Shown piece by piece: positions 11,271 to 52,100 of a DNA stretch of 64,000 nt; positions within the stretch are counted from its first letter, which is position 1, and each line of letters starts with the position of its first letter. A program made the translations under genes and the position numbers. Under the pieces are notes generated by a model, which saw only the letters and a program-made list of their open reading frames with translations, had not been told where the DNA came from and made no database searches. The stretch is from Eledone cirrhosa (lineage: Eukaryota), in contig OZ024753.1 of assembly GCA_964016885.1 (NCBI GenBank), forward strand, positions 30,070,001-30,134,000, in the 5' to 3' direction.

Positions 11271-16223
<4,953 letters not shown>

Positions 16224-19200: not shown

Positions 19201-19435
19201 AGAGTGTTTTCCCCTCCCCTTTATTTTTTCCTATTTTTTTTTTTTCAGTTTGCTTTAGAAAGCTCTCTGAGCTTATTGAATATTTTGTAACTTGTGAAAA
19301 ATAAAAAAAATATAATGAATGAATAAATTCTACTGCGTAGAATTTTCTCTTTAATACAGTGTGCATTTTGTACCATTGTCTTCCTTTTGTGTAGCAAATT
19401 TGCTCTTCTGAAAACAGCAAAAAAGCCTTGATTTC

Positions 19436-19441
19436 AATAAA
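19436..19441 (+). terminator. Candidate poly(A) signal of the RNF38/44 mRNA (would give a ~3.2-kb 3'UTR)
   Basis: AATAAA at the end of a stretch (16224-19440) free of the MITE/SINE families; other AATAAA hexamers exist, so tentative. Confidence 0.35.
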
Positions 19442-20335
19442 GTAATTTTTTTAACTCTAAGTAACCGAATCTCTCTCTCTCATGTTTCCATTTCCATATT
19501 TTTAAAATAAAATAGCTGTATTCCTCAGGCTAGGACTCATTAAGTGACCACATAAAAGCTTCCTTATTGGCTCAATTTTTATTTTATTCTTTTTAAATAT
19601 GAGACTTTGTTGCTAAGTTCCCTGTTATGTAAGCAGCTATCTATAGAACTTAGCAGATCATTTAGTTGATGGTGGCGGTTGCTATAGTAGTGTATCATTC
19701 CGGGAAGTGGAAGCAATACAAAATTAAAACATCTTTACAGATATGTAAATTGTAATAGACGAAATGAGTGAGATTTATAAAAACATAGTCGAAACTGCTT
19801 ATTATAATCACTTTGGGATGAAGTTCTTGTAATTACTTTGCGATTACAATAAATGTTTGGAGTTTGGAGCATTATTTAAGAAACAAGTCTTAAAATTATA
19901 ATGGAGATTTTAAGATAAGTATGCAAGGCATTATTTAACAAAGGAGTGTTACCTGAATTTATTATTAGTTGAGTAACTAATTCCTTCATCAGTTGGTTTA
20001 GTAACCGGATAGTTGTTTAATTGTTAATTGTCAAAGCTCTTTTGTCACTCCTCCTTTGACCTCAATGACTATTCTTATTACTCTTTGTCTCCTCTTTGTT
20101 CTATTTTACTCCATCTTGTCTTTTTTACATAAAACTAGCAGGATGGCCTGGCGTTGCTTAGGATTTGTTCTAGGGTTCTTATATATTTATCCTTATCGAG
20201 CCTGGTGAAATAAATACGTTTGTTTATATTTTGTTATTGTGTATGCAAAAATATCTACACGAATATATAATTTTAAATATATTAAAGTTTAAGCAAAGAA
20301 TTGCTGCTTAATGTTTTAATATAAGTATGAACACT

Positions 20336-28510: not shown

Positions 28511-28760
28511 CTATTCTATGTTGTCAGTAGCAGTTAAAACTGCACGAGGGACATGACTCTCTGGACAAGATGGATCTGTAAGTAGTGTTTCTTCCAATGG
28601 TGAAGCCAGAGTTTCTTTAGATGGAGACAGTGGAGGTGAGTCTAGATCAAGGTCAATATCAACATCAATATTGAAATCAATATCCTCTTCTTCAATAGCA
28701 TCTTCACTCATGACGCTATTGGAAACTTCAGATGAATTATCAGATGTAATGGAATCACCC
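28511..28760 (-). CDS. SLBP: SLBP exon 8 (acidic C-terminus, TAG stop)
   Basis: tttcag| acceptor; [10 protein letters not shown]...[16 protein letters not shown]...NIE*; within ORF 28511..28897. Confidence 0.85.
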
Positions 28761-31700
28761 CTGAAATAAATATAATAGGAAATATAGAGCAATGTAAATG
28801 CTAAAGGGTTAAGTCTTTCATGGGACAACAAGGCTTCCTGCTTTAGCAGGGAAAAGGACCTTAAAATACATGTTTCGTTTAGCAGTAAATAATTCAAACA
28901 GAGTACTCACCTTGTTGAACTAGTAACATTATCAAACTGATGGAGTGCAATACGCCAGTTCCTCATCTGCCCATCCCATGACCTGCGACTACATTTCTGG
29001 TACTTATTTGGGGTTTTAGGATGAGTCTTTTTCCGTTTATGCCTGCAAAGAGTTAAGGATAAGAGAAATGACTGCCACCAACAATATAACATATATTTTA
29101 ATTTTATAAAATGTAATTACATTTTAATTAAAGAACACTTCCATGACAGAACAAAGAGTTACTTTGATGTAGAAATGATGTGACAAAAATATTACCTTGG
29201 GATCACCCTGATATAATTGTCATAACCAATTGTGTTCATGCCATAATCAATGTCCTTTTGTCTTCTCATCAAAATGTTTGGATCACTTTCAACTTCATTA
29301 TTTCTACTATAATAATAATAAATAGACAAGACTAAATGCATGTTCTAATAACACAAACATTAATAGTTTGGAATATAGCTTAAAGAAGGCTCTTACATAT
29401 TATGATGAAAGGTTTTTAGATAAATATAAAGACTTTAAAATACACAGCTTAGTGTTGTAAAACTAGGGGTGGTTTGGTACCAAAAGGGTTAACCTGCTCC
29501 AAAACCTTTCAATGTCCTATACCACACAAAATCACACAATAGCTAGACATTCTTCAAAAGCACTACATGAAATATTAAAGCTTCCATTCTAATACTGCTA
29601 ACAATGACCTGTCCATTAGTAAAGATACTATAAACATTTGAATAACAAAACAACTTCAGTTATTTTCTGTGAAATTACAGGATGTTAAGAATTAACTCTT
29701 TAGCATTTACATTACTCTATATATACTATTGTAGTTTCGTGGTGAAGGCTTTATCTTACATAATATTGAATCTACGAGATTTTGATATTTATTTTGAGAG
29801 TAATAACTTAACATCAGTATGAGTGGCCAATTATGGTTGGTTTGAACAGAAAGAGCTGAGAGAATTCTGGCTGGATATGGCCGATTTAAATGCTAAAAGG
29901 TTAAAATCTCAACAACTCAATATCAAAGGAAGAAAAAATATATTACTTACTCTGTATATTTTTTCCCTTTTTGATTCAACTCAAGTTTACGGCAATATCT
30001 GGTGAAAAACAAACACAGTAACTATCTATAAAAGATCAATATTCCGGGAAGAAAAACTTTACAAATGTTATATAATTGTTTCTACTAGTGGCACAAGGCC
30101 AGCAATTACCCAGTACATTACCGGTACTTTAATGTACAAATGTTATATAATAATGGAGACAAAATATATTACCTCTTTAAATTTTTATGTTCCTGCTTAG
30201 CACGACTCTCAAAGTCTTGTAATTGACAAGTTAGTTCAATTTCAGACTGAGGCGTTGGGGTTGATCCCTTAGACCAGGCAACATCTGCAGAAGCCTGAGC
30301 TGGAGGAGTCCTGAAAGAAACAAAATTATTAGCAATGTATATTAACACCGTGGGAATTTCGTTGTAACCACAAAGCTTCACCCCATAAGAAATACATACA
30401 CCACCACCAAAACTTCATCGTCAATATTTGCTTTCATTGTGAAAAACTACAATTCATATGACTATATAATAGCCCAATAAGTCAAGTAAATTAGCCCAGA
30501 TGACAGCAAAAAGGTGGGCAGACACACACAAAATAAACCATAATCTAATATCACCACAAGGAGCCAGAAATTATTTAACCCTTTATTACCATTTACATTA
30601 TATATACTATTGTATTTTCATGGTAAACACTTTATCTCACATAATATCAAATCTACAAGATTTTGATTTTATTCATTTTGAGAATACTTTAACATCAGTA
30701 TGAGTGACCAGTTATAGTCAGTTTGAATAGAAAGAGATGAGAGAATTCTGGCCGCATACGGGTGGTTTAAATGCTAAAGCATTAACACAAAAGTTCATCA
30801 TTTTGATTTTAACGCAACTACAAGAAGTTCCGCATCTATGAAACAAAACAACCCATTTTATAGGCTTCTCATTGGAATTAAAATCTTCCTACAATTTTCT
30901 AAGAACCATTTTTAAGTTACTACCGTAGCTGAAATAATATTAGCAAATGGCTCAGAATTCTTCATTAATATATAGAAATAGGAGTATACAATCACAAGAT
31001 GGTTAAAATACAAATCAAAAGCTATAGCAACTACACAATACATATATCCATATGAAACAATATCTCTCCCCTTCTATATATATGTATATATATGTGTATG
31101 GAGGCACATGGCTTAGTGGTTAGAACATTGGCCTTGTAATTGAAAGGTTGTGAGTTCAATTCTCAGACCGGGTGATGTGTTGTTTCCTTGAGCAAGACAC
31201 TTTATTTCACATTGCTCCAGTTTACTCAGCTGTAGAAATGAGATAAGGACTGGGGTCCGTATCATTCCACTACAAAGTGGTCGTGGAGGTGCCACGGCAA
31301 AAAAGCACCCAGCACTCACTGTAAATGAGGTTGGTGTTAGGAAGGGCATCCAGCTGTAGAAATCAAGCCAGCATCAGTTCCCGTCCCACCCTTGCAAGCA
31401 GGGAAAAAGCGGACGTAAAATGAAATGATGATATATATAATCATACACACACACAAAAAAAAAACAACTCACCACTCTGGAGTAGTTGGAAGAGGAGGAA
31501 AGTCATGGGGCTTGTAACGATAACGCCGTTGATGAAATTTCTGATAATTATCCCTGTAATACACATACACAACAACATTTATAAAGAATCCAAAGAAAAA
31601 ATATATAAAAAAACACAAAAACAAATGTACAGAAAAGCTTCCAACCCATATCAGTATAGAAAAATTAAAATATGTCATCTCTGACAAATGAGTATCTTTT

Positions 31701-34700
31701 AATAAATACATGAAAAAAGACAGATATAGGAGCACGGTATGTTGACCAGCATACATACATCTGAGGAAGATAGATATGATTAGGAAATACCTAAATCAAA
31801 AAGTTGACTACAACATCATGGTTGGACAATGGCAGTGTGTTGTTCTAAGGCCTAACTCAACCCTTTAGCATTTAAACTAGCTGCATCTGTCCAGAACTCT
31901 CTCACCTCTTTCTGCTCATATTGACATTAAAGTATTTTTCTCAAAATAAATAACATCAAAATCTCAGATTCGATATTATGTGAGATAATTATGTAAGATA
32001 AAGCCTATACAATAGTATATATAGAGTAATGTAAATGCTAAAGGGTTAATGATGATTGTCTAACCAGATTGCAACTGCAGTAGCATGGAAGGACAGACAG
32101 CAACTGATAGTCATGTAGAATATTTTACTCTACCCAACAGTGTGTATATATATATATTTATAAGTGATTATGTATTATCTTAAAGATACAGTATAGGTAC
32201 ACTGATACATCATATTTCTGCACACCATAAGATGAAACTAAAAGGGTTGTTGTGAAGAAAGGAATTTGCCCATGTGTAGGTTCCACTTGTATTGAAGAAA
32301 GCTGTTATTCACAGAGGGCCAAGCTATGTGTTTGAAATATTAGTATAATTTTCACACCCTAGTGTTAAAATTAAATAAATTTAATATTAGTTAACTACAC
32401 AAAGAAAAAAGACAGTTTTAAAAACAGGAATATTTCACAGGACAGCACGACTTTATTTTACCAGCCTTGAAAATATGATGGGCTAAATCAACAGGCCTCG
32501 AGATCACCTCACTAACAAAGCATCTAGAATACACCTTTGTTATATGCTTTCCTAAATGGTAAAATACCCCCAGAAAATAAGTAAAAAAAGACAACAAAAA
32601 GCAACAGACCGTGTATGTCCCCCACTGACTTCATCTCTTCTCAATGGACTACGTAATGGACTGGAATTCTCACTCTTTTCTCTCCAACCATCTCTGAAAT
32701 AAACGTACAAGTAAGTTAGCAGGAGATGAAAATAAGAAATGCAGGAAAACTTCATTAAAACTAACAAAATATTCCATTTCTGACTAGAGAACTTCTGAAT
32801 TAAAATAAATCAGATTCTTTACAAGCATTTTTTTCCATTTATTTACAATAGACACAAGGTCCTCCTCACATATATAAGAGATGGAAATGATGCGTGCAAC
32901 AAGAGAGGTATATTCGATAAACGAGATTCTGTTACCTAAAAGGTACTTATTTATCGACAACGAATTCAGAAAGGAGTTTAAAAAATAAAAATCCTGTTAT
33001 CTAGCAGTTTTCTTCAACAAATAACTATTTCTTAGGCATATGTCAACAATATATATTGAATTCAATATTTCACTTTTTCGTTCAATACAACAATGAGAAT
33101 CAACGACGGCGGAGCTCTTAGTTGATCGAAAAGAAATAGCAGCCAAATCACACTAAAATATACCTTAACGTAAAACGGGAAGGACGCATTTCATACAGCG
33201 ACTCCAAAAAGACGAGATGGTCACGACCGGAACACCTTTAATTATAGATCTTCTCAAACATGGTTGGCCTCGTGTTAATATTTTGATTAAATATGATATA
33301 AAATTGTCTCCCTTTGGTGAATAATGTCAGATGCACCGATTTTCATACTTAATGAAAGTGGAGGGATCGCAGATGTTTTATAGTGTAGGAAAGGAGATAG
33401 AATGGAATTTGTATTCCACGGCCAGAACTTACAATATAAATATATACATAAAGCTGAATGGTTAAAAAGTTAGCCTTGCAACCACGAGATCCTGGGTTCG
33501 ATCTCATTGCACGGCATCTTGAGCAAGTATCGTTACTGTAGCCTCAAGATGACACAACCCTTGCGAGTGAAATTAGCTAAGCTAGTCGGATGGGTTGTAC
33601 CTGTAATTTAAAGGGCCCATCCTTGCCTCACACATTGTTAGTACTTGCTTTGATTGAGATCTGCGTTATGGTTACACGTGCCTGTGGAATACTCAACCAC
33701 TTTACACGTTAATTCACTAGTCAGACTTTCAGCTGACAGAACTGAATGCTCATCGTCGAAACCGATGGAAGATCCACTACACACATAAACCCATTTTCCA
33801 TCCAAATATTTATTTCTAATGTATCTGAACTCCTCAACTTTTTCTAACAAGTCGATTAAGATATAAAAGGTGCAAAAATGAAACGGAAATGGCGCGATAA
33901 GATGCTATTTGTTATACGTAGTATCTTGAGCAAGCCCATCCCCTCTCCAGGTCTGATCACAGCCGATTTCTTCTTCGAGAGAGAGAGATGAATTGAATGA
34001 CTCCAGCACTGGCGTGGTATTTTTTTATCGACCACGAAGAGATGAAAGGTGGTTGACCTCGACAGAGAACCACAACGAACACAGCAAAGCATTCTATCTA
34101 ACACTGTAACGATCCTGCCAATTCGCCGCCTTTTAATATATATATATTCTTTTGTGTTATTTCCTTTTATAGTGGTAACTTTATACGCTGTACGCAAAAC
34201 GAACGAAAAAAAGATCGATCTGTTTCTTCAATGACAAGTAGTGGGATTTGAACTTAAAATCGAAACACCGCACCCCTCCCACACACCCAACCATCCCGCC
34301 CGACTCTTCAACAATTCCGCCAAATCATTCTTGAATTGGCATTTTACTTATCGACCCCGAGAAAATGAAGAACGAAGTTGACTTCGGCGAGATTTTAATA
34401 GTGAGTGTAGAGAACCGGAATACCAAGACAACTGGTACGTTATCGATATTGGAAAGATGAAAGGCAAAGTCGGATCATCAACAAGATTTGAACTCAGAAC
34501 GTAAAAATACACAATCAAATATCGAAAGCCTTTGATCGACTATTCTATCGTTTCTGCAAATAATATTTTGTATCATTTACCAGGCGGCAAATTAGAAGAG
34601 TCCTTCAAAGGCAAATAGAATACTATGTGCTACTATTAACCCCGGCTCTCTGCGTTCAGAGTTCAAAGCCCGCCGAGGTCAACTTTGTCTTTTATCAACT

Positions 34701-36002
34701 CAAGGTCGATAAATAAAGCGACAGTAAATTACTGGAATCGATTCTTCTCTTGGAAACGGATGCGCAACGCCGTGGAACCACTAAGGCATCTCTTTTGTTA
34801 TGGAGGTGCACGACAGCAATTAGAGCATTGGACCCACGGTCATGGACGGGACCATGGGTTCGATTCTTTGACAAGGCAGTGCTTTGTTCTTAAGCAAGAT
34901 GCTTCATTTTACGTAGTTTTTTCATGGTAGATCTGGGGCATTTATATTTCGAACACCTTCGGAGATGTAACCTCGTAAGAAGTCAACTAAACATGTAAAT
35001 ATTATTTTTTTCAACCTCTCATACAAAAGGAATCATGATTTTGAAACAGTCTAAAGACGAGAGGGTAATAGAGTTATAAAGTACGAAAATTCCAGGCATC
35101 GTTATGAATGTGTTTATGATCTGATGAAACTAGTTAAAAAGCCCTGAAGGAGACAATACTACTCATACTATATCATAACATTTTAAATTATCAAGTCACT
35201 TTTACGATATATATCCCGCGAAATTAAACAGACATCAACATTTTATTTTATTTTTAATCGCTTTATAAATGCTTCCTCGGTATTTTCTGCCCTTAAGAAA
35301 ATAAGATTCTCTATTGTTTTTTTAGCAATCAATCTTCTAAGTATTGGTTTCATCGATTTATAAGAAACCGTTTCCTCATCCAAAACAAAAACATAAGATT
35401 ATTATTTCGATTGTAGGATTTCGTTCGATCACGCGAAATAGCGCCAGTTGAAGAAAACGTAAACAACCTCGAGACGTTTAAAAAGGAAGGGAGAGCAATA
35501 AGATGGCGGGACATTGATAATCGCCACAGTTCAGTGCAATCTTTCTCTCTCTCTATATATATATATACAATATATATACATAACTGGAAAGTCTACAAAT
35601 ACTTTGGATGAGATATGCATCCACAAGCTTGTTCGATGAAAATAAAATCTGAATATGGTATGAAATACGTTAATCGAGTTATTGTAATTTCTATTTTTAA
35701 TTTTTTTTAAATATTGTTTTTATCGTGTAAAAATGACATTAAAATATGATCAAGAATAAAATATGCATAGCTTTGATCGCTCGAAAATCAACATAACTAG
35801 GAAACCTTGATGAAAGAAAAACTGTCAGATGACAGCAATCTATTTCACCAGAAAGTTATTTTCGATCTTTGCATGCAAACAATAAATATACGATAGAAAA
35901 CTAATGTGATTATACGAACTTGTTCCTGCGCGGAGTGGTCATTCTATTATTATCAGGAGAAGATACATCATGAAGAGAAGAGGGAGCCGAAGCCGAATCC
36001 AT
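28511..36002 (-). CDS. SLBP: Histone RNA stem-loop-binding protein SLBP (8 exons, ~308 aa)
   Basis: Exons (- strand) 36002-35920, 32693-32610, 31553-31473, 30310-30173, 29998-29951, 29306/29303-29196, 29042-28911, 28760-28511; all introns phase 2; total 927 nt. RNA-binding domain [26 protein letters not shown]...[28 protein letters not shown]; also TTP and RYCRKL motifs and an acidic C-terminus. Confidence 0.93.
28761..28812 (+). mobile_element. MITE family A terminal fragment abutting the last SLBP acceptor
   Basis: aatatagagcaatgtaaatgctaaagggttaa matches the family terminus. Confidence 0.8.
28911..29042 (-). CDS. SLBP: SLBP exon 7 (RNA-binding domain, second half)
   Basis: ttgcag| acceptor, AG|gtgagt donor; HPKTPNK...[17 protein letters not shown]. 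Confidence 0.96.
29196..29306 (-). CDS. SLBP: SLBP exon 6 (RNA-binding domain, first half)
   Basis: TAGTAG tandem acceptor, AG|gtaata donor; [25 protein letters not shown]. Confidence 0.94.
29692..29904 (-). mobile_element. MITE family A
   Basis: TIRs plus TTAA. Confidence 0.85.
29951..29998 (-). CDS. SLBP: SLBP exon 5 ([16 protein letters not shown])
   Basis: caccag| acceptor, GA|gtaagt donor; 48 nt; RYCRKL resembles human RYKRKL. Confidence 0.82.
30173..30310 (-). CDS. SLBP: SLBP exon 4 (TPPAQAS...KNLK)
   Basis: tttcag| acceptor, AG|gtaata donor; 138 nt; within ORF 30169..30381. Confidence 0.82.
30575..30785 (-). mobile_element. MITE family A
   Basis: Degenerate TIRs plus TTAA. Confidence 0.82.
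31101..31432 (+). mobile_element. SINE C with RTE-like tail
   Basis: Near-identical to the 24596 copy. Confidence 0.87.
31473..31553 (-). CDS. SLBP: SLBP exon 3 (DNYQKF...PLPTTPEW)
   Basis: ttacag| acceptor, TG|gtgagt donor; TTPE resembles the vertebrate SFTTPE degron. Confidence 0.82.
31861..32049 (+). mobile_element. MITE family A
   Basis: TIRs, conserved body. Confidence 0.82.
32610..32693 (-). CDS. SLBP: SLBP exon 2 ([19 protein letters not shown]...)
   Basis: tttcag| acceptor, CG|gtctgt donor; 84 nt, phase 2-2; SPLR CDK-type sites. Confidence 0.7.
33990..34750. mobile_element. Cluster of older SINE B copies in both orientations
   Basis: Multiple degenerate core/box B matches at ~34020, 34345, 34450 and 34660. 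Confidence 0.65.
35920..36002 (-). CDS. SLBP: SLBP exon 1 ([27 protein letters not shown])
   Basis: ATG just downstream of the E2F/YY1/NRF1 cluster; AA|gttcgt phase-2 donor (weak). Confidence 0.65.
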
Positions 36003-36756
36003 GTTATTAATTGAATGACTGGTAATCAACTGAGAAGTTCCCGCCAAACATGGCGCATGCGCTTCGGACAATAAACCAAATAATCTTTTTAAAAATCGAA
36101 ACTTTTTTTTATATTACGTATATATTTTTAATTCTTATCATAATTAAGATAGATATAAATTCATAAAATATATTTTTATAGTGATTTTATTTTTCAAGTC
36201 TACATAACTATGTACAATAATTACAGATGTGTAAATACTGGCTGTTGATTGGTTCGAATAATATTTATTTGAAAATTGTGGCGCCGACGTTTTTTGTTGT
36301 AAAACTTAGTTGGTCCTCATAGATTTTAGTTAGTTGCCAATCTAGTGCTCTTTTAGCACATCGAATTTGGCGTTAAAAACCACGAATGTACATCTACACG
36401 TCATCTACGACAATAACTATTTGTAACGTTTATTTATATACCGTATAACAAACAAACAGAACAAAACGCCCGTGCCTCATAGTTTTCTAAAAAAAAAAAA
36501 AGTTTCAATGTTTTAAAATATATATTTTTTAAATCTCGCCTACAGCTATTTACCTAACACTTTTTGTAGTTAAAATTATCGGTATTGAATCCTCTTACCT
36601 CTTATAGATATTTAATAACACGAGGACAGCGTTAACTAGAAATTTCTGTTGATAGTCACCAGATAGTCTAGACTGGTTAGTTCCTGTTTGTCATATCGTA
36701 AATATATTTAATTTTAAGCTAACTCGTTATTTAAGTGTTCCTGATATACTGAAAGA
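36003..36756. promoter_or_regulatory. Putative bidirectional SLBP/Cdc25 promoter
   Basis: Lies between divergent ATGs. E2F TTCCCGCCAAA 36038-36048; YY1-like AAACATGGCG 36046-36055; NRF1 GCGCATGCGC 36053-36062; ATTGG 36248-36252; CHR-like TTTGAA 36268-36273; CCAAT 36337-36341; TTTGGCG 36366-36372. CpG-rich relative to flanks. Confidence 0.75.
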
Positions 36757-36878
36757 ATGTTACGAAATATGGATGAATTAGACATTAAACCACGGAAATC
36801 TATGGGTGAAGAAAAGGGAGAACTAAACTCACCAGTTACAAACCTGGCGATGAATTTAAGTGAACTTAGAACAGACAG
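36757..36878 (+). CDS. CDC25: Cdc25 exon 1 (MLRNMDEL...[13 protein letters not shown])
   Basis: In-frame TGA at 36742 upstream; ATG at 36757 or 36769; AG|gtaaat donor; SPVTNL matches the CDC25A N-terminus. Confidence 0.85.
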
Positions 36879-39800
36879 GTAAATCATATTTATATAATTA
36901 TAACTCATTTTTTTAGCATTAACATTTTTGTTTGCTTTTTGAGATGGCATAAATTTCAAACGACCTAGATTTGACAAATAACATTTTTATTGTTCATATA
37001 TTTACAAAGTATTTAGAATTTTACCGTGATTTGTCTATTTATGTATCATTTAATTTACTCTAAACATTTACAAGCGTTGATTTTAGTCGCGTTTGGATAT
37101 TGTTTTCACTAAGTTATAAATAATATACCAGCAGGGCATTCATAAACGGAAAGTATTACATTCACGTGTCTTGGCACGTTTCTTTCCCATGGTTTGATCT
37201 ATATTCCTAAAGTGTTACAAAAATAGTAAATTTAAAATTGTTGTCTAGTTGCTGTTAACCAATCATTGAGAATTCTTGGACAGTATCTGCTGAGAGCTAT
37301 CATTTTTTAAAATTAGTGTTTCTTTTACTTCCATTTTTTTTGTTAAAAAATAAACTGTTTTGAAAAACTTTATTAACCAATAGTTTTATTTCTAGTGAAT
37401 AGCTTATAAACAAACATGTTAAGATTTTCAAATTTGTGTTATAGTCTCATGTATGATATTCTCTCTAATTGGGTTGGAGTACAGCTGATTGAATCGATTC
37501 TTGGGGTTTACAACCCTCAAGCCCCCCTCCACCCGTAAAAAAAATAAGGGGAAAAAATGAAAATAAAATCGATCTGGGTGAGATGTGAACTTTGAACTGA
37601 TTTAGACATAAATATTGAAATTCTAGAGTGTTCTAATCTCATCTACCATATTCACCACCTTAGAAAAAGAATGGAAACCGAACAGATGGTCTCAGTACTT
37701 TATGTGCAATTTTCTCAATCATACAAATTTGCCTGTTTTAATTTCGAATTTAATTACTCTGAAATTACTTTTTAATTATTTTGTATTTAAGATTAATATA
37801 AAACCCTTTCAAACTAGATAGAGACTGTTGGTATCTTTCAGAATAAAATTGATAGTTTCTAGTTGGGTAATGCAATATTTCCCTAGGGCTTTGTTTTGGT
37901 TCAAATTGTCTTGGCTCAAAATTCTATCAAGTTTTATCATTCTAGTGTTTTTAGCTATTGTGAAAAGAAACTGAACTCGTAAAATTTTTTTTTTTTTCTA
38001 AAAAAAAAATTTTGACTTTAAATTTCAGTCTCTATTTTTGACGAAATAAATTTGACTACTTGCTTTTATTATCCATTTATTACAGCATAACTAGCTTAGT
38101 GCCCCTCCCCACTCGACCCAAATTTCTTTCATTATAGCTTTCTTAAAGCATATATTTTAGAATAGATCGTTAGTGATAGAATTTTGAAGTTGTAGCAATT
38201 ACAATTATGTTGGTGATATTAAAAGAAAATTTATAATTATAGAAAATGACAGTGTAGTTAATTTCACGTTACCTCCTTCATTAATATAAATTTAGTATCA
38301 TGAAATTGGCAGGCAACAAAAAAAAAAAAAATGATCGACATGATCACAGGTTAAAATACTCATAGCGAGACTTGTGTATGTTTATTTTAGAGTTTCATAT
38401 ACATCCTTATTCTGAATCACACAGATCGAAAGTATTCAGTAAATGAACGTATTAACGAACGGGGATACAAGAATGCAAAATTAACATAATCGTAATCTGA
38501 ACCTTCAAGAACGTCCTTGCAATATATATATATCTTAGGTTATACTCGTTATTATTATAGCATAGACTTACAGCCCTTTACATTCTGAATTCAAGTCCCG
38601 ACGAGATTAGCTTTGCCTTTCGTCCTTACGAGGCCAATAAAATAATGCACTGGAGTCGATTTATTCAACTTCCCCTCCCCCAAATTGCTGGCCTTGTGCC
38701 TAAAGTAGAAACTATTATACTATATATATGTAGATGCATTATTAAAGAAAGTTATGGAGATCACTTGACTATAGTTATGTCTAAATGTTATTGATTCCTA
38801 TTAACTTATACTGATATTTCGATAAAACCTTTTTTTGGAATGCGACAGTCTGGAAAACACTTCAATAGGCCTATTTATTCTTCATTGAATATCTTTTCAT
38901 TATGCTTCATAATCAGCCATGACTAGCTTCGTTTTGTGTTTTCAAATATTTTGCTGATTTCATTTTTTTTTTTACTCAACATCCATTAGTCACTGTTCTC
39001 TCATGCAGTGTCATGCCCTTTGAAGAGCATATATTCTAAACGGTTTAGCTCTTAATTGATGGCCAATCTTTTGTCTAGTTTTAATCTTAGTTATGTCACC
39101 TATTTGAATAATTCATTCGCGCCATAAACATCGACTTTTTGCTTTTAATTGATAAGTCTGCAAATGATATTTGAGCAACTGAGTAACTTTCCAGGGACTG
39201 TGGTGGTTTAAACTGGGCCCCTCGAGATTTGAACTCAACTGCAAAACTCAAAGCTGAGATTCACCACCAGTTATATATACTAAACTTTTGAATTAAATCT
39301 TGTCAGTAGGATTCTTTACAATGAACCAGTTTTTTTTTTGTTTTGTTTTTTTACCAAGATAAATAAGAGTATGGTAAATTAGCATCTGTATTCATGCAAA
39401 TGTTAAATCGTTCTCCTTTCGGATTGTCTCACAGTTCTATGGCAATGTCTCTCGCTGGAAAATGGTTGCTTTGAGAGTTTGATTGCCTTTGACCTCAATA
39501 CGTTATGCTCTTGTTTCGAAATGTTTGCGTTGAACTTTATATATATATATAATGACAAGTTAATTTCCTAAAAACTAATGTAATTTGTTTGTTTTAAATT
39601 TTAATAAAGAATTAGTTGTCTTTTATGGCGAATGAAAAATGTATGTAAAGATTGAGTTTGCTGATTCAATGTTGGTATCTGTTAAGGGAGTAATTGGTAA
39701 TTTAGCACCAGAAATAATAAAATACTGAACTATGAAGTTTGAAATAGTTAATGAATAAGCTACTCGGAAACTGCTGTAAGTGATAAATCGCCATTACCAT

Positions 39801-42191
39801 ATGCCTATTTTAAGGGGATAAAAAAGGAGGTACAAATTGGATATTGTATTCACAAAAATACAAATTGGGCATGATTGGAATACCTTTTGTTCACCCACGG
39901 AGTTTAGCCATCCTATAATGGAAAACAAGAAAAGGATCTTGTTTCGAATTTAAAAATCGAATTTCTTTTAAAGTCCGGGCCTTTCGGGAGGGAAAGGGTA
40001 TCTTTAAATATGAAATTTGGCCCAAATGATAGCAACAGAATGGAATCTGCTAGTGATGGTGTTTAACTGAGCAACGGATAAGACTATTCAAGTAGGCCAT
40101 AGCTGGAGTTGAACTCATGCGCCAAAAGTCGGAACAAATACCACAAGGCACTACAATCCGCCACCTGTTCGTTTAAAATGACCAATTGTTTTAGTGGTTT
40201 CTATTTTAAAGTATAGTTGGTTTATTAATTCTAAGAGTTGGGTATTAAGTTTGTCGTGAGGAGTAAAAAAAATATTATGTATGTTTCCTATTTTTTAAAC
40301 GTTTTCTGGTAAAATGCAGAAAAACGGTGTAATAAAAATATTGGGACCAGCTAACGGAGAATGTAAAAACCTTAGTTTCCTTGTTTCCGAAACGAAGTGA
40401 ATGGTTGTCAGTCAAGTATGTTCAGTATTCGGGGAGATATATTTGAATATTACCATACGATGATTCGTGGTGTATTATAAAAAAAATATTTTCTGAAGAT
40501 GGGAACATATAAGCGTATATGTGTTCCGTAAGGTGTCGCGGGTACATAATCGGATTCTTCGATGTTCAAAACCTAGAGTTCAAAGGTAAAAGTATACCTA
40601 TTTTAAAGTATTTCGTTTCGGTAATTCACGAAACCCAAGTTAGTTTTTTGAATTCCCCACTATTGCTGATCCCAAGTTTAATTGTCGTTTTCATCTACTT
40701 AAGTTAGTTTAAAAATTAGATTTTTAATTTAGTTCTTTGTAAGTAAATTATATCTACTTAACCTATTCTGTTGGTAAAAGGAGAAAGATTCACTTCGTGC
40801 TATTTGATCTATGGGAAAACTTTTGCCGTCGGTTGATTTTGAACTTCTATTTGAGATTGCCACGCTATGCTTTGACGCATTTCTAAGTTCAAATCTCGCC
40901 GAGGTTAACTTTGCCTTTCATCCTTACGGGGGTCGATAAAATAAAGTACCAGTAATGCACTGGGTAAGTGCTGGCCTTGTGCCAAAAAATAGAAACAATT
41001 ATTAATTTAAGAAAAATGTATTAATATTTAAAATGTAATAATTTTTACTCATAAAATCTTGAATGCAGCTAAATGAAGGTCTGGGGGTAATTCATAGATG
41101 TTTGGTATTAGTTGATTCAAAGATTGTCTTGGATAGCACGTAAAGTTTTGTTAAATTATTGCAAAGTTGACTAATTTCCCAATACGTTTTTGAGGGATTC
41201 GGATAAAAGAAACTGTGTTGGAAAAAATGCGAATTGTTGAAGAATGATAAGTGGTTATGTCAGTTTCAACATTTGAGTTTATATCCGGTTTTGTACTGGT
41301 TAACGAGAAATATTTAAAAATTCTTGTATATCCGATATCAAGAAAGGGTTGATTGCTGCCCTTGATAAACTCTGAACTCGTTGAACGTTGACAAAGAGGT
41401 CCAGACGATTGTTTTTAGCTTGTGAAGGCGCGTGTCGTCGTCTTCTAGCGTATGCGACTTGCTGTCTCAAGCTGTCGTTCGCCTGATAGAGGTCAGTGAT
41501 CAGTTTCCAAGGCCCACCGCGAAGAGGTCGACATCGTGCTTAGGATATTGGGTTCATGATCGTAAGGTCGTGAGTTCGATTCCCGGACCGGGCAGCGCGA
41601 TGTGTACTTGAATAAGATACTTCGTTTCATGCTGCTCCAGTTGACTCAGCTGGCCAAAAAATGGATTGTACCTGTAATTCAAGAGGCCAGCCTTGTCACG
41701 TAGAATCTCCACGAGGAGTATGTTAAGGGTCGGTGACAGATTTACCATTGTGTTTAGGTGCTTAAGCACAGCCCCCCCCCCCCAATTTTTTTACGATGAA
41801 ATTTTCAAATGTTTGGGTCCTCATAACTTAACTAGCAAATGGCCTCATTTGTCTTAAACCCAGACCTTGAAGAAGGGTGCACGTGCTTGTGGAATGCCCA
41901 GCCTCTTACGTTATTTTCACGAGCAAGCAGTTCCATTGAATCAACTGGAGCACTCGTCGTTCAGAAAACCAGTACTATTCTATATTCACTATACCAAGTG
42001 AATATTTTCTGTGATGTAACTGAAAATGATTCAGACTTAATAAAACTATTAATTATTGGTTATTTTCTCTTTCCTCATAAATTATATTTTTCTTTAGACT
42101 TAAATTAATTTAATTTCTTCTTGAATTTCAGATCAACTCCACAAAGATGTTTATCGCGAGATTTCGCGGGAAATGGGTCGATTTTATCAGG

Positions 42192-42232
<41 letters not shown>

Positions 42233-43080
42233 AAAATAAAATGAAATACGTCTCTTTTTTTTTTTCGTGACAAAGATGGGTGGACTCAAGAGACTTTAAC
42301 TGTCATCTTTGTAAGGCACAATGAAAAATTTTCAGTATTAATAATTTCGAATTTAATCATTGTTATAAATGGAAATTAATTTGTATTTAATATTATCAAA
42401 TAATTTTCTTCGAATATTTGGTTTCTTAAGAAATATTTACAAAGTTTAATTTTAAAAATAACTTGTAAAATATTTTTTTTCTTTCTGAAGTTAGTGATGT
42501 GATGTTTAGTTTGTTTGCTTCAGTTGCTTCTGAATTAAGAGTTAATTTCACAGTACAAAAGTTTTCATGAATACATAGTAGCAGGACTTGTGGTGTTAAA
42601 GAGTTCGACATAATTCCATGGTTAAGATTGTTTAAACCATAACACCCGAATACATATGGCAAACAATATTATAAATAGTATCTTAATATATTTAACTTTA
42701 GTTTGTGTGGTGCAACAAAACTGGGGAGTGGTGGTGGTATTTCTTAGCTATTTAAAAAGATAGAGATAGTATCTTAACAAATAACATCCTACAGTGATTT
42801 AGAAGACTAGATTTAAACCCATGGGAAGGGAGTGTTTGAGGACTCTGTCCCCACGACCCTCTCAGGAATCTATTTTGTATTATTCAAGTGTGGTTCAAGA
42901 GTTAGTATATTTGATATTTAGTTTGTGGGGGAAGTAGATTAAATTTTAAACTAACTTTAAAAATTTAATAATTTCTCTTTCATTCTAAATTGTATTTCTC
43001 AGGTTGTTTTAAAGACTCTCCAACTCCTTACTATTCACCTTCTGATGAATACAGGTAAGTTGAAATCCTCCCAGGATAAA

Positions 43081-43134
<54 letters not shown>

Positions 43135-46100
43135 TGTATGTGTATATATATATATTATATATATATATAATACACACACGGCAACCAATCCCTTTAGCAT
43201 TTACATTACTCTATATTTACTATTGTATTTTCACAGTAAAGGCTTTATTTGACATAATTATTTCACATATCAAATCTACGAGATTTTGATGTTATTTATT
43301 TTGAGAACAATACCTTAATGTAGGTGTGAGTGGCTGGTTTGAACAGAAAGGTGAGGGAGTTCTGGCTGGCTTAAATGCTAAAGGGTTAATAATAAATGAA
43401 CTGACAATAAACTGTTTGAATGTTTGATTGAACGTAGTTATTTGTACAAATCCCATTTAATGTCAGTTGTCTGCAGACAGTCTTGAAGGCCCTGAAAAGG
43501 GTCATAGACACTGCATCTTTCTATCTCTCTGATTAAAACAGTATATGTATATATATACATACACACACATAGTTGAACAATGGTATAATATTTAAGCAAA
43601 GAAATCTGTATTTAATTCTTTCACTGTAATAATATTTTTGTGTGAAATATTTTCATGTATTTTAGTTATAGAATAAAAATAACATCTGGTAACTTTGTAA
43701 AAAGCAAATGTTTTCCTCTCATGTTAACTATTCCTTATGAATGAGGAATAGCAGGGACCCAATATTTATAACTTATATTGAGTTACTCCCTTCTCTTCAT
43801 TTTTCTAGGAGACAGCTGATTTTATTCACATTATCTCAGCTGTTCTTAAATACCTCTTTACTATATCCTGTAGTGTGGAGTGGGCAGAAGACAAAGGCTT
43901 GATAGGGCATAGACCTTTGTTATAGCAACCAATAGAATTGTTTGCTTCAGCCAAATGCTGATCAGTTGTGTCCACCAGCTGGTGGCTCTCTACTCTTTTC
44001 TAAAGAAAAGATTCCTTAGGAGAGGAGACATCATATCAATATAGTTTACTCTCCCCTTCTGATGCAGTAAAACATTGTTACTTTTGTTATTTACAAAGAA
44101 TAAATACCTCCATCAAATTATGACTTTTAAAAAATATTTTCATTTCCAAATCACAAATTAATTTTAAAAAAAAACATTTTTTCAAAGATTAAAAATCTTA
44201 CATTTATAATTGTTTCTACTTTTGGCACAAGGCCAGCAATTATCCAGTGCATTACTGGTACTTTATTTTAGCGACCCCGTAAGGATGAAAGGCAAAGTTA
44301 ACCTCGGCGGGATTTGAACTCGGATCATAAAGGGAGGTAACTCTATGCTTCAAAGCATGGCGCCCGACCCCCTATCGATACTTCCAATCCATGATGCTTT
44401 AACTCTTTAGCATTTACATTACTCTATATATACTATTATATTTTCATGGTAAAGACTTTACCTCATATTAATATGAAATCTAAGATTTTGATATTATTTA
44501 TTTTGAGGGTGAATTGGCAGTAACGGTAGAGGGTCGGACATGCTTTCCAGCATAGTTACGTCCCTTTACGATCTGAGTTCAAATCCTGCCGAGGTTAACT
44601 TTGCCTTTCATCCTTACGGGGTCGATAAAATAAAGTACCAGTAATGTACTGGGTAATTGCTGGCCTTGTGCCTAAAATAGAAACAATTATTTATTTTGAG
44701 GCAAAAGTAACCTGCTGAGGTTAACTTTGCCTTTCATCCTTACAAGGTTGATAAAAATAAAGTACCAGTCATGCACTGGGGTCAATTTAATCGACTTCCC
44801 CCTCCCCCAAAGTTGCTGGCCTGGTGCCTATATAAGAAACCATTATTTATTTTGAAAACAATGTTAACATCCTGCCAAAAGTCAATTTTACCTTTCATTC
44901 TTCTGGGGTTAAAATAAAGTACCAGTAATGTCTTGGGATTTGATGTAATTGACTTTCACCTCTCCTCAAATTGCTGGCTTTGTGCCTAAATTAGAAATTA
45001 TTATGCACTGGAAAGTGGAATTGCTGGTGTCAAGAAAACAATCCTGGTACACACCATGAAATGGTTGGCATGGGGAAGAACATCCACCTGTAGACACCAT
45101 GCCAAAATGGAACCTCAGAATATATCACATCTAATCTGTACAAGCATTGCTGACAGTGTGTGACTTGTAGTTGGGGTTTAGTTTGACAAGAAATGAACCT
45201 TCAATTATACATTGCTCTCACTGACTTACTGTCATAATAAAAGTTGAATTGACATGAAAAGTACCATAAAATCAGTGCAAAGTCGAATCAAATATTTATA
45301 AGGTTAGGCTTTGTCTGTTTAGATTTCAGTTTTATAAAGTTACAGAGTGAGTTTAATAAAATCATGAAGTTATCCAACAAAAAGTTGTCTGTCGGTGACT
45401 GATTACAAATTAGAAATTAATTCTAATTATGATTTACATATCTTAGTGCAATTGAAGCTGATCAAATATTTATTTTTGTGTTTTTAGCATTTTAGAATTT
45501 ATTTAACCCTTCAGCATTTACATTACTCTCATCATCGTGTAACGTCCATCTTCCACGCTAGCATGGGTCAGGCGGTTATTTACTCTATATTTACTATTAT
45601 ATTTTCATGGCTTTATCTCACATAATATCGGATCTATGAGATTTTATGTGAGATAAAAAGGATCGATCGACTTTCATCAAATCGGACCGAGGAAACAATG
45701 TTTCCGTTGGTCTTTCCGATTGCTAGTACTATCGGTCGCAACTCCAGGTAGAAGGAGCAACATGAAATAAAGTGTCTTGCTCAAGGACATAACGCATTGC
45801 CCGGTCCAGGAATCAAACTCACAACCTCAAGATTGTGAATCCAATTCTCTAACCAGTCAGCCACACGCCTTCACTTATGTGAAATAAAGCCATGAAAATA
45901 TAATAGTAAATATAGAGTAAATAACCGTCTAACCCATGCTAGCGTGGAAGACGGACGTTAATATCGAATCTGAGATTTCGATATATATTTTGAGAAGAAT
46001 GCCTTAATATTAGTATGAGCGGCCAGTTAGAACAGAAAGAGGTGAGAATTCAGGCTGGATATGACTGGTTTAAATGCTAAAGGGTTAGCAGTGCATTCTT

Positions 46101-49100
46101 TCAGTATAAATCGTATTTTAGATGGAACAATCAGGAGTGATACACACATTAAATTATAGATCTAGTTAATTAATCCTATTTGGTAGCTATTAAATTCTGT
46201 TGCTCCATTTAAAAATATTTGAAAGGGGCAGCTGAAATGACATCTAGTTGTAGAAAACCTGTTAAAGGATTGAGAGGACTCTTCAGCTATATTAACCCAT
46301 TACCCTTTACATTACACTCTATATTTACTATTGTATTTTCATGGTAAAGACTTTACCTCACATAATAGCGAGATTTTGATATTTTTTCAAATACCCAATG
46401 TTTAAAGTACCAGTAATGCACTGGGTAATTGCTGGCCTTGTGCCAAAAGTAAAAACAATTATTTATATTGAGAACAATACCTTAACATGAGTACGAGTGG
46501 CCGGTTTGAACAGAAAGAGTTGAGGGAATTCTGGTCAGGTATGGTTGGTTTAAATGCTAAAGGGTTAAGGACACAACTTCTCTCGTGTTGGTGCCATAAT
46601 AAAATGCACTCTATAGAGTAAGATATGTTGGACCCCCTGTCACTTACTGACTGGTCTGTGACATGTTCAACTCTTGATAGTAGGGAAAGTTGATGATGGT
46701 GGAGTTGATGTACTTGATTTAATGTTTCTCTCACTTATAGTATATTTTATATTTGATTTCAGAACTAACGAAAAGAACTCTTGCTTTGTAAGTGATATAC
46801 TTCCAAATTCTGATGTAGTGATGTGTGGAGAGTATTTGAGAATTCTTTTGGTTTGGGGTGGAGATGTGCTAAGTGTTTTTATTATATTTTTTAATCTTAG
46901 AATGAATGAAGCTAGTTTAATTAACCCTTTAGCATTTACATTACTCTATATATACTATTGTATTTTTATGGTAAAGGCTTTACTGCACATATTCAATCTG
47001 AGATTTTTATACTTATTTTAAGTACAATACTTTAACATCAGTATGAACAGCCAGTTACAGCAGGAAGAGGTGAGAATTCTGACCGGATATGTCCGGTTTA
47101 AATGCTAAAGGGTTAATTAATTGATTTTAACTGTAGTGGATTTGTGAAGGGCAGATTGTGATGCATGTTTGAACTTGTGTGTTGCTGAGTAGCAAGACAT
47201 GGGTCATGAATGCAACAGGTTTGTGAAGAGTTGTAATAAATGAAGAATGCAATCATTGATGGATTGTTGGTGTGCTTCAATGGCTGAGCACAAATGAGCT
47301 GATTAAAATTTAAAAAAAGACAATGTATAAAAGGAAAAAGATGAAGTGAGTAAGAGAGACTATTGTGCTGGTACTAATGATGTCTGACTATTGTAAAACT
47401 AGGTCGCAGTTTTAGGTGGTTTGGTATCAAAAGTGTTAAACCAAAGATGCCAAATTTCATTTGTTCCTACTCATAGACATCATTTGTTGTTTTGAGTAAT
47501 TTTTATTTTTTTATTTTTTTAAAGTTAAATAAATTTTCCTCGCTTTGTGATGTGAAACCTCTTGAAATCCTGGATAGTTCTTTGGAAAGTAGCCCTCATG
47601 GTTTTCAGGCTGAACAAGATGACAGCAATTCTAGAGATAGTGGCTTTGGTAATGAGAAAGACAAGGTTAGTAAATCTATACTTATATTTTGTTGCTTTAT
47701 TTATTAGTGATTATTATATCCTGATGGCTATTTACTGTGTGTGGACATATACGAATTTCTTTTGAATCTTTTCTACTTGATATTCAGCTAGTTTTCATTG
47801 TTGCTGAAGTCATATGCAGACTTGGTTGTGCGGTCAAGAAGTTTGTTTTACAAGCATGTCTTCAGTTTGACCAACGCCTTATAAACGAATTCAGTACATG
47901 GTAACTGTATGGAACCTTTGTTTTATATATATATATATGCAGTGAATTGGCAGTCGTTAGAATGTCGGATAGAATGCTTTGTGGTATTCGTTCCGGCTCT
48001 TAGCTCTTGTAGTTCAAATCCAGCCGAGGTCAACTTTGCCTTTCATCCGTTTGAGGTCAATAAAAGAAAAAAAAAGGTACCAGTCTAGTGCTGGGGTAGA
48101 TTCTTCCTCTATATCTCTTTCTCATTTTCCTGGAAGAAATCCTCTGTACTTGGGCCTGGAGGGGTCAGGCCCCGCCAGGCTTTAAATACTTAAGAAACAC
48201 TGTATGTCAATACAACACCCCTACAACTATCAGGAGTTACGGGACCATACCATAACCTTATGAAATTCAAGCATAGAAAAAATGGACATAAAAAAAAAAT
48301 AATAGAACTATTAATGATTTGAAAGCTTTAAATGAACAGCTATAATTTATAAATTTATAAATCTCAAGTGAAAAATTCTAATAATTTTCATTTTGCTTAG
48401 GATTATTTTATTTGAAGTTTTCTAGTTATTCAAATATATTGATGGGATTATATTCTGAAATTCCTGCTGAAAATGTTGGTTTATGTATTTAAAGTATATT
48501 GCATTTTTTTTTTTTTTCTAATGTTTAGAAAATATGCTTATTCATTAATTATCCTGAAATTAATTGAAAATAAGCCCTTAGGGTCTTAGTCTAGTCTAGG
48601 CTTGGTTATTCTTCTGTAATGAACCCCAAGCTTTAAACTAGTAGATTTAACTGTAAGGCTGTGTTGCGTGTGTGCACTAGTCTGATCTTCCTCCTCTTTC
48701 TTCCGTTGGTAGGAGGACCAGTTTCAGTTTGTGCCACCTTTGGGAATGCCACCACGTAAACAGAAAATGTTTGAGGAAAATTTTGAATCTTCATTCTCTC
48801 GAAAATTTCATCGTTCTATGTCAGCTCCTTTAATAAAGAAAGAGGTATATGAAACTTAAACATTTTGTAATTATTAGATGTTTCTTTTTTTTTAATTTTG
48901 GCTTTTTTTTTTGTCTGTGCTTCTATAAATTTATTCATTTTTGCCACTTTTCCATAACCTATTTTAGTACTAAAGTTTTGTTTGTTACTTGCAGGATATT
49001 GAATTTTTACAACGAGGTAACAGCCCCAAGAAACCAGATGTGTTATCTAGTGAAAAGGATGATGGTTTCTCTGATCACTTTGAATCAATGGACACAGCAC

Positions 49101-52100
49101 CAGAGGTAATGATTATATCTGTGCTTGACTTTTAATACCTTGGAGAGATTTAGTAGAAAACATTGTTAAAAAAATGAGTTTAATTCAAATATTTGTAGTA
49201 TCTTAACTAGGAACAGATCTTTGTGAAAATTAGCAGTAAACGAAAAGACTTCAGTTTTTAGTGCAATGCAGTCACTGGGCTGTTTTGCAGTTTTCAAGAA
49301 TGTCTTAATAATGAAGTTTTTGTATTAAGGATGGTTGTCTATGTCTTGGTATTTACTGCACTGCAATTATTTTTCATTACAGCCGGTATCAGATAGCATT
49401 AAAAGCCTCATTGAAGCTCCACTGAAGAGTACTGAAAACTCAAGACTCTGTAAACTTGGAGAATCCTTCGATGACACACCAACAGTAAGTAAAACAAGTT
49501 TTGTATCTACCCTCCTATTTAATTAGACTAGCATCATTTTTTAGTAACATTGTATAGTATATATTGATCTTCATTAAACTACTAAATTCCAGCTTGTATT
49601 ATTTATGCAGGAAATAACATTTAATAGATATTAAATAATGGTAAAATTAACCATTTGCTTTTAATTGTTGTGTGTGGAAACAGATATGTATGGAATATAT
49701 ATGAGTGCCAGATTCAATGAAAGAAAAATCCTCTTCCTTCCCTTTTCCCTTCTGTTATATATTTTTTTGTCCCAATAACTTCCTTTAGTTATTGATGCAC
49801 TGGGGTTAGATATCTTGTCTTTAATGCGTAGAAATGTCCATGATCCCCAGCAGATAACTGATGAAGGAAAATTTTCTCCTGTTCGTGCTTTCCTCTTATT
49901 TATAAGTACACCTTATCCAGCCCCTGTTTCTTCTTATATGTGTGTATATATATATATATAATTAAAATTTAGCTTCAGCATAGTTGTATACATATATGTA
50001 TGTGAATTTTGTATATCTAAAGATATACGATATTTTTAATAAACAAACATTTTGAAAGCCCAGCTATGAATATTAAAAGGCTGACAGCCAGCGCTGTGTT
50101 GTGGATTCCAGCAGAAGCAGCGAGGGACAACTCTCATGCGTATTTCGAGCTATTGACTCTCATCAGAACAGTGCTTCCCCTGTTCTCTGCTGGAACTTGA
50201 AAACAGGCAAAAATATATAGTATGTATATTAAGTTCAGTTTTCCTTTGATACAGCTTTTAGTTTTAATTTAGCGCCATATATTCATAACTCCTGATGGAG
50301 CTATATACATGCAGCAATGGCATACATGTGTTTCTTTGGGCATTTTAAACCTAGCATAGCCCATCTCTCCAGATTTGAACAGAGCTAATTTCTTCCATAG
50401 AGGAAAAATTGACCCCTCTACTGGATTATTACTTTTTTTATTGACTTCAAATGATGAAAGGCAACAAATGCTCATAAACTGTCTCATTATTTATGCCTTC
50501 ATATAGGTGTGCTTCTTCTTTAGTTCGTTTTTCTCTTCATGGAGCATTGGGTTAGGAGAGCTCTTCGTTCTACATAGTTGGAATCCTTGTCACATGTCTA
50601 CTCTCTGGTTATTCATCTTCTCATCGTATTTGTAGCAATTTTGATTAATAAAGGTAAGGTTGTTAGCCTCATGCTCCATCCCTCATCCCTTCTCAACACA
50701 ACTCTAATGGGATACTGATATCTTTGTACTGCCTGCTGAGCCTCGGACTCAAATCACTTCCACTCGTGAGATAATGCTTGGTCCTGTATTGAAATTGCAA
50801 GTTTGTGTTCATTGATTCATTAACCCATTATGATTTACATTACTCTTTATATACTATTGTATTTTCATGGTAAAGTTTTTATCTCACATAATATCGAATG
50901 TATGAGATTTTGAGAAGAATACTTTAATATCAGTATGTGTGGCTGGTTGCAACCGGTTTGAACAGAAAGAGATGAGAGAATTCTGGCCAGATACAGCTGG
51001 TTTAAATGCTAAAGGGTTAAATATTGAATTATTTTCCACCTGTAAGTTGACCGTCATTAATAAATGTTCCAATTTCTCATTTATTAGACCACGCGTATAA
51101 TGAAATATTGTGCAAGGTCTTTTGATGTTAAAAGACGTTCTGTTTCCATTAAGCGCGATCTAATAAAAGATGAGAACACACCTGTACATCAAAAACGACG
51201 GAAACCAACACATGGAAAGGTAAATTTTAAGAATCTTTAATAACTTGCAAGAATTCTGTGTATGTGCATCCATTTTTCTTGCTGGCAAACTTGAAATTTT
51301 GTCAGATGTTTAAATATCAATAATTTACAATTATCTATTTTTACCTGATTTTTTTTTTGTGTTAAATTTGACCTTTATGGGCAGGTGAAAGTAATTAACA
51401 GGTGTAGAAGTAATGACTTTATGGATAAACAGAAAAATTGAAATAATAGGTGAAAGTAATTATAAAAAGTTTTTTGTCTGCTTGCAGGCCTCTCCAGTTT
51501 TCAAACGCTCACACTCTGCAACAGAGGCTCAAATCAAAGCAGCTGTACAAAAAAGAACGCATAATCCATCTTTAATTGGTGATGCATCAAAGGTAAGTGA
51601 TGAAGCTGTGTATTTCTTGGCTTAGGGGTTACGATGGTTGGATTCACGATCATAAGGCTGTTGGGGGTTCAATTCAAGCACCAGGTGGCACTTGTTTCTT
51701 GAGCAACATGCTTCATTTCACATTGGTTTTCATGATAGGACTGGAGTCTGTATCATTAAAACATTTGAGAAACCTCTTATGAGATGAGGCCAGCTATGAA
51801 CCTACATGGATGTCAACATTTTACGTCCATTTTTTCCATGCTATAATAGATTAGACGAGTTGTCCTGTTGTGGGCAATGCTAGGTCAGGTGACCATGTCT
51901 TCCTCATACAGAACTAATTTTGGCTGGGTGCCCTTCCTAATGCCAACCTCATTTACAGTGAGTACTGGGTGCTTTTTGTCGTGATGCCTACACAACCATT
52001 TTACAGTGTGGGCTGGGCGCTTTTTGTCATGACACCTACACAACCATTTTACAGTGTGGGCTGGGCGCTTTTTGTCATGACACCTACACAACCATTTTAC

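Follow-up and report, generated by a model that had tools for sequence, protein, structure and literature searches.

Head-to-head SLBP and Cdc25 genes in the octopod Eledone cirrhosa: a probably ancestral bilaterian gene pair that may share one short promoter

The DNA analysed here (the window) is a stretch of 64,000 nucleotides from the Eledone cirrhosa assembly GCA_964016885.1 (contig OZ024753.1, positions 30,070,001 to 30,134,000). It harbors the genes for SLBP, on the minus strand, and for Cdc25, on the plus strand; their features are collected in Table 1. Divergent ATGs of these genes had been pointed out in a preliminary description of the locus. They are confirmed here, with both genes intact and head-to-head and with 754 bases between the two start codons, and the outer limits given there for the pair, 35920 and 36878, are the exact first splice donors of SLBP and Cdc25.

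Table 1. Features of the SLBP and Cdc25 genes and of the region between them (positions in the window).
Feature	Position	Strand	Remarks
SLBP coding span	28511..36002	-	8 exons, 308 aa, ATG 36002
SLBP exons 1-4	36002-35920, 32693-32610, 31553-31473, 30310-30173	-	
SLBP exons 5-8	29998-29951, 29306-29196, 29042-28911, 28760-28511	-	
TTP motif of SLBP	within exon 31473..31553	-	resembles the human CDK-dependent degron; putative degron here
Candidate alternative first coding exon of SLBP	33204..33245	-	weak match, 10/14 residues, E 0.012, to O. sinensis and O. vulgaris SLBP isoforms
CpG-undepleted domain over both 5' ends	33001..37200		observed/expected 1.22 vs 0.44 and 0.49 flanking
Largest possible untranscribed gap	36003..36304		at most 302 bases; SLBP leader and putative shared promoter
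Stretch conserved in Octopus vulgaris	36015..36068	-	17/18 residues identical in read-through gene model
Overlapping E2F-like (36038), YY1-like (36047) and NRF1-like (36053, palindrome) sites	36038..36062		25 bases
Two CCAAT boxes (36248 -, 36336 +) and CHR-like hexamers (36253, 36268)	36248..36341		Cdc25 end; not above chance
Cdc25 5' UTR, part of exon 1	36305..36756	+	at least 452 bases; spliced contig
Cdc25 coding span	36757..58796	+	15 exons, 505 aa, ATG 36757
Cdc25 exons 1-5	36757-36878, 42132-42190, 43003-43054, 46763-46787, 47525-47665	+	
Cdc25 exons 6-10	48713-48844, 48995-49105, 49383-49484, 51088-51219, 51488-51592	+	
Cdc25 exons 11-15	52468-52530, 55244-55342, 56952-57082, 57953-58070, 58671-58796	+	

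The SLBP introns are all of the GT-AG type and in phase, and the reading frame closes with a single stop. The product is an octopod-type protein, 78-80% identical to the SLBPs of Octopus sinensis and O. bimaculoides (80% over 308 aa for the latter). Two of its exons match the Pfam family SLBP_RNA_bind (PF15247) with E-values of 8e-17 and 3e-9, both above the curated cut-off. A search that scores only the best candidates detected a single SLBP locus in the 3.0-Gb genome. The TTP motif is followed by an RKL motif in exon 29998-29951, the order found in human SLBP, which is broken down when S phase ends, via its TTP motif and the cyclin-binding KRKL (PMC3764509). Of the 14 SLBPs checked, 2 have no TP motif ahead of the RNA-binding domain, which counts against the overall reading given below. 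Octopus SLBP isoforms use alternative first exons; the candidate counterpart in this genome has no start codon at the corresponding place. The GKNT motif of the RNA-binding domain (exon 29196-29306, minus strand) carries Met in the octopod SLBPs (Eledone, Octopus, Argonauta) at a position occupied by Lys in nearly all other aligned SLBPs.

The Cdc25 introns are likewise all GT-AG and its frame closes with a single stop. The protein is 69% identical over its full length to three Octopus Cdc25 proteins, the PDB chains of human CDC25A/B/C align with its catalytic exon, and it belongs to the Cdc25 family by its Rhodanese-fold catalytic domain with the HCEFSSER loop and its long N-terminal regulatory region. 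Exon 1 encodes a segment matching the Argonauta Cdc25 N-terminus (61%, E 2e-8), and one Cdc25 locus was detected in the genome, again among the best-scoring candidates. The start lies about 5 codons later than in Octopus and Argonauta, behind an in-frame stop (36742-36769, plus strand), and a second Met at 36769 offers an alternative start.

The 754-base gap is largely taken up by the Cdc25 leader. A 673-base contig (contig 7) of sequencing run X4, a run of unrecorded kind from the same study but another sample, spans 36305-36878 without differences and continues with the letters of Cdc25 exon 2 (42132). Since the contig joins exon 1 to exon 2, it derives from spliced RNA, which assigns at least 452 gap bases to the Cdc25 leader; this length is a lower bound, as the true start is not readable from the contig. 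At most 302 bases are therefore left for the SLBP leader and the promoter. Thus the gap of about 750 bp described previously is real, but the shared promoter proposed to fill it can occupy only the smaller part. Three other runs examined gave genomic contigs and are possibly the assembly's own source. No contig of run X4 crosses SLBP exon 1 in the stretch examined, which carries no weight. The Cdc25 leader contains two uORFs on the plus strand (ATG 36386, 20 codons; ATG 36508, 2 codons), which may possibly exert translational control of Cdc25.

These first exons are divergent and start less than 1 kb apart, as in bidirectional gene pairs, barring an unseen upstream exon and with the distance on the SLBP side taken from the ATG. 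Both 5' ends lie in a CpG-undepleted domain that is likely to be unmethylated. Human bidirectional promoters show an excess of E2F, NRF-1, YY1 and CCAAT motifs (10.1101/630442, citing Lin et al. 2007), and the gap, inside the CpG-rich domain (observed/expected 1.22), has predicted E2F-, NRF1- and YY1-like sites within 25 bases. The NRF1-like 10-mer has no other copy in the 64 kb, and shuffling the 754 bases attained it 3 times in 5,000. The sites were assigned by the consensus motifs of E2F, YY1 and NRF1. Jointly the three motifs occurred in 0 of 5,000 such shuffles, the motifs having been picked after inspection; in the same shuffles the E2F (p 0.08), YY1 (p 0.07) and CCAAT (p 0.15) matches were not significant singly. 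The composite block occurs once in the whole genome and is therefore not a repeat. It falls within the stretch conserved in O. vulgaris, where the identity of 17/18 residues compares with 22/28 for SLBP coding exon 1 against the N-terminus of Octopus SLBP. This stretch has no in-frame ATG and is therefore best read as conserved non-coding DNA.

Towards Cdc25, the CHR-like hexamers are of a kind common locally (144 in 64 kb), and no CDE was seen by eye four bases upstream of those at 36253 and 36268. Within SLBP intron 1, the CpG-rich domain contains a further YY1-like site at 35500, close to an E2F-like word (35430-35510); it is possible that these sites mark an internal or antisense promoter.

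The adjacency of the two genes was followed through other invertebrates by protein record numbers and matching sizes of the parent sequences, on the assumption that numbering follows gene order. The lists, which lean towards molluscs, held the best 120 of 165 SLBP hits and the best 120 of 2,905 Cdc25 hits together with cluster members. In all 14 invertebrate species common to both lists the two genes are on parent sequences of equal size, three of these being scaffolds of 0.67-1.45 Mb. For 12 of the 14 species the accessions or locus tags of both genes were available, and in 7 of the 12 they are consecutive (Cdc25/SLBP): O. vulgaris (CAI9726901/902), O. bimaculoides (XP_014786513/514), Argonauta (GAB1600512/511), Mizuhopecten (OWF50794/795), the brachiopod Lingula (XP_013383189/190), the annelid Owenia (CAH1783461/462) and the acorn worm Glandiceps, a hemichordate (XP_077992206/205). 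By chance, consecutive numbers are expected with a probability of about 1 in 10,000-20,000 per genome. In Solemya, Dreissena and Pecten the record numbers differ by 3-5, in O. sinensis by 14 and in the chiton Liolophura, where the pair is possibly split, by about 3,240; Ostrea edulis and Ylistrum contribute the size match of the parent sequences only. Among the best 120 hits of each list and the cluster members there was no arthropod, nematode, echinoderm, amphioxus or cnidarian with both genes. Drosophila Slbp and string, which are presumably close, play no part in the argument.

A fusion of the two proteins was looked for as well: none of 329 proteins carries both motifs, and the long Cdc25 models of Lingula, Acipenser and Solemya proved to be internal repeats. 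Solemya also has a second, short Cdc25-type gene (ScPMuIL_015020) on a different chromosome from the SLBP-linked one, with four near-identical tandem copies fused in one model. Of 209 loci with SLBP relatives in metagenome contigs 80 were kept, none with a Cdc25 match by tblastn, and the Cdc25 catalytic motif is absent from the 31 metagenome SLBP loci longer than 5 kb; these loci are probably mostly non-animal and so have no bearing on animals.

The same arrangement is present in a vertebrate. In the cattle genome CDC25C (BTA7, 51,313,474-51,344,138, minus strand) and SLBP2 (51,344,517-51,348,748, plus strand) are head-to-head and 378 bases apart, and row 141 of Table S3 in PMC5499805 lists them as a putative bidirectional promoter. 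There are 563 such promoters among 24,616 cattle genes (PMC5499805), so a head-to-head distance below 1 kb is not rare by itself; it is the recurrence of this pair across phyla that goes beyond chance. CDC25C and SLBP2 also stand side by side in a pig gene list (PMC6487013). The preliminary description had stated that human SLBP lies next to FAM53A, that human CDC25C lies next to FAM53C and that SLBP2 maps to the latter region. Published gene orders bear this out: FAM53A, SLBP, TMEM129, TACC3 in human, with no CDC25 neighbour of SLBP in the order given (PMC4359789), and CDC25C, SLBP2, FAM53C in cattle (PMC7764440). In five teleosts slbp2 adjoins zmat2 instead (PMC7255616). SLBP2, an oocyte-specific gene, has become a pseudogene in human, mouse and rabbit (PMC7226043).

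All 9 vertebrate rows, SLBP1 as well as SLBP2, fall on a single branch of a tree built from 24 RNA-binding domains, with a support of 94/85, just below the star level of the tool; the Salvelinus row groups with SLBP1. CDC25A, CDC25B and CDC25C presumably descend from one invertebrate gene. After the vertebrate duplication the pair would have persisted as CDC25C-SLBP2, with SLBP1 retaining its FAM53 neighbour only. FAM53 (PF15242) gave no match in the Eledone genome, where a control search likewise matched nowhere. The 20 kb on either side of the window, inspected by eye, hold only repeats and retroelement frames: just past the Cdc25 3' end, contig positions 30134001-30144000 are almost entirely multi-kilobase simple repeat of the TA/CA type, and another flanking block contains retroelement-like frames. 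Some 13-17 kb ahead of the window lies a further CpG-undepleted stretch, possibly the promoter of the next gene.

The pair in cattle and in molluscs, a brachiopod, an annelid and an acorn worm makes bilaterian age likely, and the adjacency itself is highly likely to be ancient. Its presence in a brachiopod, an annelid and a hemichordate rules out confinement to this lineage. An origin before the split of protostomes and deuterostomes, as proposed earlier, thus agrees with the coordinates in cattle and with record order in these three phyla. By the definition of conserved linkage applied to conserved ancestral microsyntenic pairs, or CAMPs (non-paralogous genes, at most 4 intervening genes, at least 4 major lineages) the pair qualifies, with Mollusca, Brachiopoda, Annelida and Hemichordata by record order and Vertebrata by coordinates, lineages that differ from Irimia's exact taxa. 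Record order gives no strand; both lineages with strand data, this genome and cattle, have the 5'-5' orientation, and the ancestral arrangement was very probably head-to-head. Our overall reading, to which we assign a probability of roughly 0.6, is that SLBP and Cdc25 are an ancestral bilaterian pair kept together by one short shared promoter. That shared regulation is the cause of the pairing is a moderately likely but much less secure part of it, and selection may have acted on the promoter to couple histone mRNA processing to CDK activation.

Separate origins of the adjacency in different lineages, or an artefact of record numbering, would dispense with an ancestral pair. RefSeq numbers are indeed not strictly positional, as O. 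sinensis and Liolophura demonstrate. But consecutive numbers occur in RefSeq and in submitter annotations from unrelated projects, with agreeing sizes of the parent sequences, and the cattle coordinates agree independently, which leaves this explanation with hardly any credit. The main rival to shared regulation accepts the ancient pair and holds that two separate promoters are packed so tightly that breaks are rare and harmful, with no joint regulation. The positions of the sites fit it: the strongest motifs are 36-60 bases away from the SLBP ATG, some 240 bases separate them from the Cdc25 contig at its known 5' end, and the CCAAT and CHR-like sites are at the Cdc25 end. SLBP control is mostly post-transcriptional, with a suggested transcriptional change of 2-fold (PMC3764509), which argues against shared regulation, as do the alternative first exons in Octopus. 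A 2026 survey found most stable pairs to be without co-regulation, a statement made chiefly of long-range pairs (PMC13508932). The break of the pair in teleosts and its decay in human and mouse fit separate promoters too and, with the possible split in Liolophura, speak against a strict need for the pair. On the other side, human SLBP and CDC25C are both cell-cycle genes under E2F or DREAM (E2F induction is described for SLBP in PMC8346857, and CDC25C is a founding CHR/DREAM gene according to PMC9090780), a gap of less than 1 kb has been retained in two large genomes, and ancient 5'-5' pairs are enriched for short gaps, taken as shared promoters (PMC3514665). We consider tightly packed separate promoters a serious but clearly less probable explanation.

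The constraint might also be maternal, with oocytes co-loading SLBP and Cdc25 mRNAs for meiotic maturation and cleavage and any somatic role being secondary. CDC25C acts in dividing cells generally, whereas the vertebrate SLBP copy that has kept the pair is the oocyte-specific SLBP2; this difference counts against shared regulation, and the presence of the oocyte-specific copy in the pair favours a maternal role. The long Cdc25 leader with its two uORFs and the U-rich elements 3' of the Cdc25 stop point the same way, but U-rich hexamers are expected by chance in DNA of 70% AT. Moreover, the invertebrates examined carry one SLBP for all cells (a single locus here), E2F and NRF1 motifs are not germline-specific, and teleosts retain slbp2 without the pair. 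A primarily maternal constraint thus appears improbable.

If the promoter is shared, the short CpG-rich element would fire in both directions. Factors of the NRF1/YY1 type would hold it open both ways, and the E2F site, together with Rb/DREAM, would act as its switch, so that SLBP and Cdc25 mRNAs would both rise in dividing cells and oocytes. The timing of the two products would be split at the protein level: CDK activated by Cdc25 would phosphorylate the SLBP TTP motif, and SLBP would be removed at the end of S phase. Cyclin A/Cdk1 is reportedly tied to SLBP. Cdc25 activates CDK1, and therefore one promoter would make SLBP together with the activator of its destroyer. Only tentatively, the pair may be seen as a cell-proliferation cassette from the last common bilaterian ancestor, in which one E2F/NRF1 promoter would turn on both the supply of histone mRNA and the activator of the very kinase, CDK, that afterwards destroys SLBP, forming a feed-forward timer. 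In that case an ancient bidirectional promoter would live on by one half in the mammalian CDC25C promoter, among those where the CHR was discovered, and SLBP2, not SLBP1, would occupy the ancestral address.

The closest known class is that of the 5'-5' CAMPs such as HSPD1-HSPE1 (Irimia et al. 2012, PMC3514665), which are also unrelated genes of related function kept head-to-head within 1 kb in several animal lineages; SLBP-Cdc25, in contrast, is not intact in human, and neither gene is named in the main text of that paper. The cattle pair consists of co-orthologous genes with 378 bases between annotated starts, but the table row is one of the computed pairs, given there without evolutionary comment, and an oocyte-specific SLBP2 stands where octopods have a single SLBP. 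Human FOXM1-RHNO1 (bioRxiv 10.1101/630442) resembles the proposed SLBP-Cdc25 arrangement as two cell-cycle/replication genes on one promoter with E2F motifs; those are other genes and were tested experimentally, and the source passages describe no conservation beyond vertebrates. Vertebrate EIF2S1-ATP6V1D (PMC13508932) is head-to-head with an NRF1-bound intergenic region, to which the NRF1-like motif corresponds here, but that pair is confined to vertebrates, while SLBP-Cdc25 spans protostomes and deuterostomes. No description of the pair was found in the full-text literature, mostly open papers, and the supplement of Irimia 2012 may list it. A search by gene name in the supplements of PMC2871058, PMC13508932, PMC9023564 and PMC4729200 did not find it either, although the tables may use identifiers. 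The pair is hard to spot from human and mouse because SLBP2 is a pseudogene there.

Few gene pairs stay side by side across phyla, and those that do point to shared regulation; here the partners are two textbook cell-cycle regulators studied separately from each other. It offers a history for the vertebrate paralogs, CDC25C-SLBP2-FAM53C on the one hand and SLBP-FAM53A on the other. Edits of the CDC25C promoter in cattle or pig may alter SLBP2 too. In the octopod genome the pair provides a testable element of about 300 bases that would switch on histone supply and CDK activation jointly in dividing cells and eggs.
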